Source: Escherichia coli (GTDB lineage Bacteria; Pseudomonadota; Gammaproteobacteria; Enterobacterales; Enterobacteriaceae). From it: a DNA stretch of 4,783 nt. The notes beneath the pieces were generated by a model, which was not told where the DNA came from, did not search any database, and was given only the letters and a program-made list of their open reading frames with translations. Below, piece after piece: positions 1-4,783 of the stretch; the first letter of the stretch is position 1; the number at the start of each line of letters is the position of its first letter. The stretch is taken from NCBI RefSeq assembly GCF_003334815.1, contig NZ_QOWO01000075.1. One strand, given 5' to 3'. The position numbers were made by a program, and so were the translations under genes.

Positions 1-200
1 GGTCCCTCCTTCCCGTCTGCCGTGATTTTCCGGTCGTTCACCCGCTCAGATTTCGCGGTCTCACCCTCCAACTCCCGTCAGCCGTGTGCGTCAGGCTGCG
101 GCTTCCCTTGCGCCCTTGCATCCCCGCCTTATCGCCCGGCTTTTCTGGAGGCACGGCACCGCCCGGTGTCGCGGAATATGTGAACAACGGAGGAAATCCC

Positions 201-626
201 ATGCAGTATGCGAAACCTGTCACTCTGAACGTTGAAGAGTGCGACCGCCTTTCCTTTCTGCCTTACCTGTTTGGCAACGATTTTCTGTATGCCGAGGCGT
301 ATGTGTACGCGCTGGCGCAAAAAATGATGCCGGAATATCAGGGAGGCTTCTGGCATTTCATCCGCCTGCCGGATGGTGGCGGTTACATGATGCCGGATGG
401 CGACCGTTTTCATCTGGTCAACGGTGAAAACTGGTTTGACCGCACTGTGAGTGCTGATGCCGCAGGTATCATCCTGACTTCCCTTGTGATTAACCGCCAG
501 TTGTGGCTGTACCACGACAGCGGGGATGCGGGACTGACACACCTTTACCGGATGCGTGATGCGCAGTTGTGGAGCCACATTGAATTTCATCCCGAATGTA
601 ACGCGATTTACGCAGCACTGGACTGA
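201..626 (+). CDS. klcA: Anti-restriction protein, ArdB/KlcA family (141 aa)
   Basis: ATG at 201 preceded by GGAGG (189-193, 7-nt spacer). Translation carries family-typical blocks: [36 protein letters not shown] and C-terminal AIYAALD. The 141-aa length fits this family; the upstream in-frame start at 84 has no RBS and would give a poorly coding GC-rich extension. Confidence 0.85.
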
Positions 627-635
627 TTAACGGAC

Positions 636-654
636 GGGGCGGCGATGCCGCCCC
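636..654 (+). other. Intercistronic GC-rich hairpin (8-bp stem GGGGCGGC/GCCGCCCC, 3-nt loop), no U-tract
   Basis: Perfect inverted repeat 636-643 / 647-654 lying between the klcA stop (624-626) and the next gene's RBS (GGAG 661-664). Downstream sequence is not T-rich, so not a classic intrinsic terminator. Confidence 0.6.
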
Positions 655-672
655 TGTAAAGGAGACGAGAAC

Positions 673-1092
673 ATGTACTGTACTGTTAAAGAAATTATCC
701 GCGAAGTGCTGAATACAGACGTGCCGGACAGTGAATGTGTTTTTGCCGTGGTGCTGACCCGCGGGGATGTGCGCCACATAGCCCGGGACTGGAACCTGTC
801 AGACGATGAGCTGGAAACCGTCATGCAGCGGCTGGACGATGCTTTTGTATATGGCGCATGTGACAGAGTTGTTTCCGATATTGTCAATGAACTGATGGAG
901 GAAAAGCGCGTAAACCGTCTTGTAACAGTCCCTGCGGTGCTGCTGGAAAAAGTGATGGTGATGGCTGGTAGTGAAATTTATCGCCTCCATGCTGTAGGGA
1001 GCGAGAACGGGGGCGACGGTGACGCATTTGTCAGGGAAGAACGTGAGATTATGCGGGTAATGCGTCAGGCACTGGACGGGGAGAACGGGTAA
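673..1092 (+). CDS. Hypothetical leading-region protein, 139 aa (possibly DUF1380-like; assignment from memory, unverified)
   Basis: ORF with GGAG at 661-664 and 8-nt spacer to ATG 673. Acidic protein with coding-like composition; same strand and tight spacing with neighbours. Stop TAA 1090-1092 overlaps the next start. Confidence 0.75.
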   Translation: MYCTVKEIIREVLNTDVPDSECVFAVVLTRGDVRHIARDWNLSDDELETVMQRLDDAFVYGACDRVVSDIVNELMEEKRVNRLVTVPAVLLEKVMVMAGSEIYRLHAVGSENGGDGDAFVREEREIMRVMRQALDGENG

Positions 1093-2534: not shown

Positions 2535-3896
2535 ATGACATTATCAGCAATCACCATGACCGCCCCGGAAGCCGCCAGCCCGGTGCAGATGTACCGCGCG
2601 ACCTACTCACCGGATGATAACAAACTGCGCCTGTATGCCGCGTCACGTCTTGACCCGGAGACGTATAAAAAAGTGCATGATGCCGGTTTTCGCTGGGCAC
2701 CAAAACAGGCGCTGTTTGTCGCGCCAGCCTGGACACCGGGCCGGGAAGACGTGCTCCTCTCACTTGCCGGAGAGATTGAGGATGAAGACAGCACGCTCGC
2801 TGAACGTCAGGAAGCACGGGCGGAGCGGTTTACCGGATACAGCGGAAAGCGGGCCAGTGAATCCGCACAGGCACTTGATGAAGTGGAAAGACTGGCCGCG
2901 ATGATCCCGCCCGGTCAGCCCATTCTTGTGGGGCATCACAGCGAACGCCGCGCCCGTCGTGATGCGCAGCGTATTGAAAACGGCATGAAACGTGCCGTGA
3001 TGCTCTTTGAACGTGCGGAATACTGGGAAGAACGGGCGCGGTCGGCACTGCTTCACGCGAAGTATAAAGAACGCCCGGACGTTCGCTGGCGTCGTATCAA
3101 AAAAATCGAAGCGGATTTGCGCAAGGCTGAAAAGACCATCGCACAGTCGCAGAAATATCTGACGATGTGGCGGGCTGAATCGCTGGATCTGAATATGGCA
3201 AAACTCATCAGCAGTCATGACCATATCAGCGCCTGTTTCCCGCTGGATACGTATCCGCGCCCGGCAGAAAAAAGCCAGTATGAAGGGAGCCGGTCGTTAT
3301 GGTCGGCCCTGGATGATGACATCATCACCACGGAGCAGGCCCGCGAAATTGCGATCCGCTGTCATGAACGGCAGATTCAGCATCAGCAACGCTGGGTTAA
3401 CCACTATCAGAACCGCCTGATCTATGAGCGTGCCATGCTGGACGAAAGCGGCGGCGTGGTTACCCGGACACAGGATTTTGAGCCGGGCGGACAGGTTTTC
3501 AGCCGGGGCGAGTGGCTGACCATCATCCGCGTGAACAAAAGCAACGGGGCGGTGAGTTCAGTCACAACGCCGAATTACAGTTTTCTCGGGTACAGCGGCA
3601 CGATGAAAGTGACGCCCGATCGCATCACGGACTACAAAGCACCATCGGCAGAAGAGGCTGCCGTCGCCAGTCAGGCCGCGAAGCGTCCGCCGGTAGTCAA
3701 CTATCCGGGGGAAGGTTTCCGGGAAATGACAAAGGCACAGTGGGCCGCCCTGCCCCGGGACTGTAAGGCCGTGCGCAGTGTGGCAGAGACAGAAGACCAC
3801 GGGGCATACCGCTACCGCCGCACAATGGATAATAATTTCCGCCTGGTGAGTGTGTATATTACCGACATGAAAATCACGGAAATCCCACAGAAATAA
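2535..3896 (+). CDS. Protein of unknown function, 453 aa (possibly DUF3560-type leading-region protein; unverified)
   Basis: Long ORF with RBS AGGAG at 2523-2527 and 7-nt spacer to ATG 2535. Central highly charged, probably helical segment (ERQEARAERF ... RRARRDAQRIENGMKRAVMLFERAEYWEERARSALLHAKYKERPDVRWRRIKKIEADLRKAEKTIAQSQKYL). No catalytic motif recognised by eye. Confidence 0.9.
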   Translation: MTLSAITMTAPEAASPVQMYRATYSPDDNKLRLYAASRLDPETYKKVHDAGFRWAPKQALFVAPAWTPGREDVLLSLAGEIEDEDSTLAERQEARAERFTGYSGKRASESAQALDEVERLAAMIPPGQPILVGHHSERRARRDAQRIENGMKRAVMLFERAEYWEERARSALLHAKYKERPDVRWRRIKKIEADLRKAEKTIAQSQKYLTMWRAESLDLNMAKLISSHDHISACFPLDTYPRPAEKSQYEGSRSLWSALDDDIITTEQAREIAIRCHERQIQHQQRWVNHYQNRLIYERAMLDESGGVVTRTQDFEPGGQVFSRGEWLTIIRVNKSNGAVSSVTTPNYSFLGYSGTMKVTPDRITDYKAPSAEEAAVASQAAKRPPVVNYPGEGFREMTKAQWAALPRDCKAVRSVAETEDHGAYRYRRTMDNNFRLVSVYITDMKITEIPQK

Positions 3897-4609: not shown

Positions 4610-4654
4610 ATTGCGCGGACGTTCTGCTGTGGACTTCTGTCTTTTCAGAACGGT

Positions 4655-4783
4655 CATTTGTCTGTTACTGATGATGTTGTTGTTCCTGCTACTGCTACTG
4701 CTACTGTTCTTCTTTTTTCTGCTGCTCTGATTACTGTCTGTTTTGTTGTTCTCCTGCTTATGCCTTTTCCGGGCGTCCCCCTG
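4655..4783 (+). promoter_or_regulatory. Start of a second copy of the Frpo/ssi-like element (truncated by window end)
   Basis: 4751-4783 (ctcctgcttatgccttttccgggcgtccccctg) matches 1484-1516 at 32 of 33 positions. Upstream there are shared ttactgttcttctt and ctgatgtt blocks plus a different simple-repeat tract. Confidence 0.6.
4670..4750. repeat. Compound simple-repeat tract: (GAT)2(GTT)3 at 4670-4684, (CTGCTA)3 at 4686-4703, T-rich pyrimidine run
   Basis: Direct reading of the sequence; differs in unit and copy number from the tract at 1449-1477 in copy 1. Confidence 0.9.

Follow-up and report, generated by a model that had tools for sequence, protein, structure and literature searches.

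A class 2 single-stranded DNA promoter, cut by the window edge, is the probable source of klcA expression in a conjugative plasmid leading region

Introduction

What drives klcA, an anti-restriction gene in the leading region of a conjugative plasmid, when the DNA directly in front of it carries no promoter of the usual kind? The question is raised by a stretch of 4,783 nt from Escherichia coli (assembly GCF_003334815.1, contig NZ_QOWO01000075.1), here called the window, which belongs to the leading region of a conjugative plasmid of IncF/IncI type and opens 200 nt before klcA. A sequence-only reading of this DNA had proposed that the window begins inside a degenerate third copy of a structured element found at 1415-2250, and that klcA would also sit behind such an element.

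Hairpins that act as promoters in single-stranded DNA (ssDNA) are known from related plasmids. Six of them were described in pESBL by Wen et al. (NAR 2025, PMC12672017), who used transconjugant RNA-seq together with 5′ RACE and divided them into class 1 (ssi1-3/Frpo), class 2 (before klcA and ardA) and class 3 (before the M.EcoGIX operon). Class 2 was reported to be without sequence homology to class 1, class 3 to be unlike all other hairpins, and classes 2 and 3 to be conserved in F. The klcA operons of both pESBL and F were induced early in transconjugants, and this induction was specific to the single-stranded phase and prolonged in uvrD recipients (PMC12672017). According to a recent preprint (bioRxiv 10.64898/2026.01.09.698686), the copy of F, named ssp2, is located between yffB and yfgB (an ArdB homologue) and drives yfgB; in F, the one plasmid studied there in this respect, ssp2 stalls complementary-strand synthesis until it is opened by UvrD. 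A further homologue was named by Samuel et al. (2024, PMC11541004) as candidate Frpo' 4.

Results

Genetic context of the klcA-upstream region

All genes in the window are on the + strand. The first of them and its translation signal are as follows.

201-626, + strand: klcA/ardB-type anti-restriction gene (yfgB of F), an open reading frame with ATG at 201, annotated in relatives as "antirestriction protein"
189-194, + strand: ribosome-binding site GGAGGA of klcA, recognized by its sequence ahead of the ATG at 201

After klcA the + strand carries a DUF1380 gene, a small ORF, a non-coding stretch of ~970 nt, another small ORF, a DUF3560 gene and a SAM-dependent methyltransferase gene. In relatives, the same strand continues downstream with ssb, a parB-like gene, psiB, psiA and hok, and then traM/oriT, while the genes preceding the region are a DUF1281 gene, a DNA methylase gene and ycfA (yffB of F). 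The leading-region genes of these relatives run toward traM/oriT. Genes oriented to oriT have the transferred strand as their template, which is established knowledge and is also set out by Samuel et al. (2024, PMC11541004), so the minus strand of the window is taken as both the transferred strand and the template of the genes.

More than 5000 PLSDB plasmids, from Escherichia, Klebsiella, Salmonella and Shigella, carry the klcA-upstream element at an identity of at least 90%. One relative, L004 (NZ_CP133870), is 100% identical to the window over 1-1070 and diverges from base 1071, and another, L003, is identical over 1-260. The top full-length PLSDB match to the window reaches just 97.3% identity. 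Together with the end of the identity to L004 at 1070, this value marks the leading region as a recombinational mosaic, one common to IncF and IncI/K plasmids. Because of the identity over 1-1070, the sequence of L004 upstream of the window was used as a proxy for that of the source replicon. It contains two small GC-rich hairpins with short T-runs (L004 11795-11815 and 11878-11896) between the ycfA stop and the hairpin considered below. Both could terminate transcription of the upstream operon; the terminator scan reports one, against 0.6 expected by chance.

Short matches to the class 1 element

The element with which the start of the window had been compared, and the sequence match that had drawn most attention, are the following.

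1612-2025, − strand: class 1 (Frpo/ssi-type) ssDNA promoter, counted as copy 1 in the sequence-only reading (class 1 HMM E 1.8e-117; DNA fold z −9.9)
86-96 and again 1891-1901, + strand: 11-mer GTGCGTCAGGC, at its first site within the class 2 loop; invariant within class 2 and in a variable segment of class 1

The sequence at 1612-2025 differs very little from the Frpo2 construct of F given in supplementary file 11 of Samuel et al. The class 1 profile was made from 12 elements, namely ColIb-P9 Frpo1-3, F ssiD, Serratia, insect and Salmonella candidates, and three copies of the present lineage. Searched with it, the window, L001, L003, L004 and F yield all of their class 1 copies, at E values from 1e-61 to 1e-121, and every one of these is downstream of klcA.

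The individual observations behind the proposed third copy could be reproduced. The 11-mer occurs exactly twice in the window, its match lengthens to 15/17 identical positions, and past a 7-nt gap after this 17-mer, CCCTTGCG is found in both elements. Positions 1-24 resemble 1726-1751 in 17 of 26 alignment columns, with the GGTCCCT and CTGCCG blocks common to both, and there is a third short match, between 26-42 and 1498-1514. The + strand is indeed pyrimidine-rich at its start (C+T 0.68 in 1-120, with 41% C and 23% G, against 0.49 in the whole window). Furthermore, both elements are long hairpins ahead of leading-region genes. The similarity nevertheless stays at the level of chance. When 1-200 is aligned locally with 1415-2250, gaps being allowed, the best result is the 17-mer alone, with a score of 24 that is matched by 34/300 dinucleotide shuffles, and when 1-24 is aligned with 1415-2250, 361/500 shuffles score equally well or better. 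Alignment of the 1.2 kb upstream sequence of L004 plus window 1-200 with 1415-2250, the check that had been proposed together with the third copy, still gives a score of 24, which 147/300 shuffles reach. Moreover, the short matches are in inconsistent order (1 to 1726, 26 to 1498 and 86 to 1891) and are thus not colinear. The outcome that had been named in advance as refuting the third copy, a lack of colinearity once the upstream DNA is aligned, was therefore obtained.

Profile searches lead in the same direction. Nine elements lying upstream of klcA or ardA were searched by nhmmer with the class 1 HMM and gave no match at a threshold as permissive as E≤10, and the reverse search gives E 1.5 at best. 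By sequence, the klcA element falls outside class 1, as the 17-mer has a blastn E of 0.5 against the BLAST threshold of E≤1e-6 applied by Samuel et al. Its shape is not that of class 1 either: the apex is a GC-rich loop of ~135 nt with a z of about 0, and no small AT-rich apical loop is seen in it, whereas the class 1 copy of the window does have the AT-rich tip. The 11-mer segment itself varies among the ColIb, F ssiD, Serratia and insect copies of class 1, and it lies in the main stem in class 1 but in the loop in class 2. The absence of homology between the two classes reported by Wen et al. (PMC12672017) agrees with these results. Chance-level alignments, the lack of class 1 HMM matches and the position of the 11-mer in a class 1-variable segment led us to reject the degenerate third copy, and we regard descent of window 1-200 and its upstream sequence from a class 1 element, by decay, as extremely improbable. 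The match of GTGCGTCAGGC to 1891-1901 is best read as chance, given how the 11-mer varies. A role of GTGCGTCAGGC as a functional motif common to both classes was also considered and discarded, since it is variable within class 1 and has a different structural context in each class.

Some further features of the class 1 elements were noticed. CT-rich triplet-like tracts (TTC repeats; CTG/CTA repeats) lie at 1440-1480 and 4650-4745, immediately ahead of each class 1 element on the + strand, and are purine-rich on the transferred strand. In L001, a fourth class 1 element is represented by a fragment of 57 + 27 nt at 19497-19580, just past the third full copy. Four CDSs annotated as "hypothetical protein" in the GenBank record of L001 (AP026744), at 8008-8211 (+), 9956-10213 (−), 13222-13479 (−) and 18859-19092 (−), overlie class 2 and class 1 hairpins. 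The ORF at 1735-1992 (−) of the window likewise lies on a hairpin, and the RefSeq records of relatives are without annotation of such ORFs. These hairpin-overlapping ORFs are probably spurious.

Homology to class 2 promoters

The region upstream of klcA has the position of a class 2 element, in the leading region and directly before a klcA/ardB gene that can be read from the transferred strand. By comparing window 1-200 with the last 200 nt before pESBL klcA, 190/201 positions (94.5%) were found to be identical, and the comparison with the region upstream of pESBL ardA gave 184/202. The full element of L004 is identical to the yffB-yfgB intergenic region of F (ssp2) at 387/419 positions (92%), and directly upstream of this intergenic region F has exact matches to the primers used for ssp2 in the 2026 preprint. 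A class 2 HMM matches the window from 198 to 1 at E 4e-65, over profile positions 3-200 of 413, so the match ends where the window starts (nhmmer). A second class 2 copy stands ahead of ardA in L003.

In pESBL-EA11 the profile search found three class 1 elements, two class 2 elements (before klcA and ardA) and one weak class-2-like match before the methylase operon, a set that agrees with the six promoters and three classes published by Wen et al. The hairpin before the methylase operon is presumably the published class 3 promoter (ssp3):

approximately L004 8117-8281, F (L005) 2664-2822 and pESBL (L012) 3279-3444, − strand: presumed class 3 hairpin before the operon of the DUF1281 gene and the methylase gene (M.EcoGIX homologue)

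Against the strict class 2 profile these hairpins are marginal (nhmmer E 0.03-0.3), and E falls to about 1e-7 when the profile also includes insect Frpo*1 and Frpo*3.

From the homology, the hairpin, its truncation by the window edge and the lack of a duplex promoter, all computed here, we conclude that window 1-165 is very probably the gene-proximal two-thirds of a class 2 ssDNA promoter, an orthologue of F ssp2 and of the pESBL klcA promoter. The element is thus an already known one, described in 2025, which had been assigned to the wrong family when it was read as Frpo. The earlier proposal therefore holds in so far as the window does open within a structured element, namely in the loop of a hairpin whose left arm falls outside the window, and klcA does sit behind an element that is functionally alike, a hairpin-forming ssDNA promoter of the leading region. 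What does not hold is the family, and with it the degenerate copy of the element at 1415-2250. No Rfam family reaches its gathering score anywhere in the window.

Structure and variation of the hairpin

The intergenic region between ycfA and klcA, 413-415 nt long in relatives, folds as a long hairpin, with DNA z values of −6.3, −6.2 and −5.9 and no shuffled sequence folding as well. The part of it within the window is composed of the following.

1-112, − strand: most of the apical loop of ~135 nt (whole loop about −22 to 112), from the pair map of L004; near-invariant in 12 homologues
113-165, − strand: template arm of the hairpin stem, the 5′ one on the transferred strand; its partner is at −71 to −23, upstream of the window

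In the pair map of L004, window 113-165 pairs with 49 bases at −71 to −23 in 44 bp with pair probabilities of 0.96-1.0, and both arms were also recovered as inverted repeats I1 and I2 in a repeat search on L004. As the partner arm is outside the window, the hairpin was seen in the relatives that are identical to the window over 1-260 (L003) or 1-1070 (L004) and stand in for the source replicon. The palindrome folds equally well on the + and minus strands, and folding alone does not indicate the strand on which it acts.

Twelve homologues were aligned, from IncF, IncI-gamma/K and IncK2/Z plasmids, Salmonella, Klebsiella, F and the metagenome of an insect. Among them, the outer stem and the loop hardly vary, and the middle stem is variable. 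In the middle stem, the insect arms GTCACGAATGCA / TGCATTCGTGAC have five compensated differences from the window allele GGCGGGGATGCA / TGCATCCCCGCC. The insect arms pair at −26.0 kcal/mol with each other, against −15 to −22 in eight arm swaps involving insect sequence, and the outer stem shows one more compensated pair. The clear compensation in the middle stem is given by the insect homologue only; an arm swap between the two common E. coli alleles was not discriminating, as the arm of L001 pairs equally well with the partner of L004.

The middle stem (window 113-146 and the arm upstream of the window; columns 57-90 and 216-259 of alignment A2) occurs in two common alleles with opposite indel asymmetry. 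In the type A allele, that of the window, F and the insect element, the distance between the −35 and −10 positions is 15 nt on the non-template arm, against 19 nt on the template arm. In the type B allele (L001, L002, L006, L007 and the ardA copy of L003), it is 20 nt on the non-template arm and 15 nt on the template arm.

The putative promoter core

The arm outside the window, read from loop to base, has the direction of transcription on the transferred strand, so that it can serve as the non-template strand. Its sequence is CTTGCAT-N15-TAAGAT-GGAGGCACGGCAC, in which TTGCAT would be the −35 and TAAGAT the −10 hexamer of an ssDNA promoter. The corresponding positions on the template arm, within the window, are these.

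116-121, + strand: TTGCAT on the template arm, facing the putative −35, which itself is the reverse complement of −31 to −26 on the other arm
141-146, + strand: TTTTCT on the template arm, facing the putative −10 TAAGAT (reverse complement of −52 to −47); unpaired at 142-145
152-155, + strand: predicted ssDNA transcription start, near A153, placed by geometry about 6-9 nt beyond the −10

The mismatch between TAAGAT and TTTTCT at 142-145 opens an internal loop at the putative −10. CTTGCAT on the non-template arm is kept in F, in the insect element and in the presumed class 3 element, and no class 2 copy lacks TA(A/C)nnT, which is also conserved in insect Frpo*1 and Frpo*3 and in presumed class 3. 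A common core, TTGnnn-N15-TAnnnT-N4-5-G(G/T)CACGGC on the non-template arm, unites the type A class 2 copies, insect Frpo'4, Frpo*1 and Frpo*3, and presumed class 3; the type B copies have a spacer of 20 nt. This recurrence across class 2 type A, insect and presumed class 3 elements supports the assignment of the two hexamers. On the other hand, a spacer of 15 nt in the window allele type, which is short for sigma-70, against 20 nt in the other common type suggests that the −35 may be misplaced or dispensable. The exact hexamers and the start position are in this sense predictions for the window allele; a start was mapped by 5′ RACE in the pESBL homologue (Wen et al., PMC12672017). The predicted start at 152-155 is ~35 nt ahead of GGAGGA at 189-194.

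In agreement with the sequence-only reading, a sigma-70 consensus promoter for klcA in duplex DNA is absent from window 1-700 and from the same region of L004. The lack of a duplex consensus promoter fits transient expression.

We hypothesize that the element works as follows. On conjugation the minus strand of the window, as the transferred strand, would enter the recipient as ssDNA. There, 113-165 would pair with −71 to −23 to give a stem of ~50 bp closing the loop of ~135 nt. The stem would rebuild a duplex promoter, with the outside arm as non-template strand (−35 TTGCAT, 15-nt spacer, −10 TAAGAT in a small internal loop) and the inside arm as template. Host RNA polymerase could then start near 153 and transcribe klcA and the later genes before the complementary strand exists. 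It would mean that double-stranding removes the hairpin and, with no consensus promoter left, ends the expression, which would be transient. The gene klcA, at 201-626 directly downstream of the element, is proposed as the first one driven by it. The activity in ssDNA, the start sites and the roadblock on which this scheme draws are known from the literature on close homologues of the present allele.

The inverted repeat might instead act as RNA in the double-stranded plasmid, either as a terminator or insulator against read-through from ycfA or as a structured 5′ leader that controls the translation or stability of klcA mRNA. That the + strand folds as well as the minus strand, that the DNA separating the ycfA stop from the element has terminator-like hairpins, and that no duplex klcA promoter is seen would all be compatible with such a role. 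However, transcription starting near 153 as predicted would give a klcA mRNA without the hairpin, no T-run comes after the stem, and the published induction is tied to the single-stranded phase, with its prolongation in uvrD recipients (PMC12672017). We consider this role very unlikely, and the ssDNA promoter is the reading retained in what follows.

The apical loop and a role in replication

In the loop, at about −22 to 112, the + strand is rich in C and the transferred strand in G and A, and the loop contains a direct repeat.

11-24: first copy of the loop direct repeat, TCCCGTCTGCCGTG (L004 12011-12024), kept in 12/12 homologues
73-86: second copy of the loop direct repeat, TCCCGTCAGCCGTG (L004 12073-12086), kept in 12/12 homologues

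The two copies, TCCCGTC[T/A]GCCGTG, are 93% identical and 62 nt apart. The loop is no more structured than shuffled sequence on either strand (z +0.5 and −0.4). A folded apical domain, for example a three-way junction, was considered on account of small helices given by RNAalifold, and was rejected as the loop folds no better than shuffles on both strands.

Near-invariance of the loop from F and the IncI/IncK plasmids to an insect metagenome, its lack of structure, its purines on the transferred strand and the two repeats allow a speculative proposal, which we hold to be rather doubtful. The loop could be a sequence-specific ssDNA-binding platform for a host or plasmid protein, and it could be this platform, rather than the stem, that gives class 2 its stalling of complementary-strand synthesis. 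The loop is proposed as the determinant of stalling because the presumed class 3 element has a like promoter core and a shorter loop without the repeats, and shows no stalling.

A rival reading is that the hairpin serves mainly in DNA replication, as an ssi priming site or as a programmed roadblock to the complementary strand, with the expression of klcA being secondary. In F, a stalled 3′ end was located at the base of the ssp2 stem, deletion of ssp2 speeds the downstream conversion, and ssp3 in place of ssp2 does not fully restore transfer in some hosts or against EcoKI (10.64898/2026.01.09.698686). Moreover, the function of a promoter does not account for a long conserved loop. Against this, the same preprint and Wen et al. 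(PMC12672017) report promoter activity and control of yfgB/klcA, and the preprint ascribes priming to ssp1/Frpo. Replication as the main role is therefore possible but has, in our estimation, the smaller share of the probability by some distance. The roles in replication and as a promoter are compatible and not exclusive.

Discussion

Hairpin promoters of this kind allow the anti-restriction and SOS-inhibition genes of conjugative resistance plasmids to be expressed minutes after entry, before double-stranding. For the locus studied here, the result is that the edge of the window cuts a known regulatory element, and that the right family for it is class 2 and not Frpo. It also follows from the overlaps described above that several public "hypothetical protein" annotations sit on class 1 and class 2 hairpins. 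The current understanding is unchanged by this analysis.

Comparison with known systems

Among the known class 2 promoters (F ssp2; pESBL klcA and ardA), the element of the window is alike in its position between the ycfA/yffB and klcA/ardB homologues and has the same stem, loop and promoter core. It differs from them in the allele only, having a type A middle stem as in F, and the window holds only a part of the full element. Relative to F ssp2, the template arm in the window is minus one G beside TTGCAT, and the base opposite the −10 is different.

Frpo' 4, from the insect metagenome OFEI01000013.1 (Samuel et al., Nature 2024, PMC11541004, supplementary file 4), is a homologue of the whole element and aligns with the plasmid copies from end to end. 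Its loop is almost unchanged compared with that of the plasmid copies, and the changes in its middle stem are compensated. It was listed there as a Frpo-like candidate by structure and hexamers; by its sequence it is placed here in class 2 and not in Frpo.

The presumed class 3 hairpin and class 2 have in common the core CTTGCAT-N15-TAAnnT-N4-GGCACGGC and the loop ends GAAGCCGCAGC and GACCGGGTGA, likenesses that make a relationship between the two classes possible. Compared with class 2, both the stem and the loop of presumed class 3 are shorter, and the loop is without the two direct repeats. Class 3 (ssp3) was reported to be free of roadblock activity (bioRxiv 10.64898/2026.01.09.698686).

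Class 1 is represented by Frpo1 and Frpo2 (ssiD) of F and by ssi1-3 of ColIb-P9 (Masai and Arai, 1997; Bates et al., 1999; Couturier et al., 2023, PMC9849209). Class 2 does the same job, as a hairpin of the transferred strand that rebuilds a promoter for host RNA polymerase, and both are active only until the complementary strand is made, ahead of establishment and anti-defence genes. The two classes have no detectable sequence similarity, and their architecture is different: class 1 is a near-continuous hairpin of ~250 nt with an AT-rich tip and a small loop, whereas class 2 consists of a stem of ~50 bp and a loop of ~135 nt. In F, the transcripts of ssp1 appear to prime DNA synthesis, whereas ssp2 blocks it (bioRxiv 10.64898/2026.01.09.698686).
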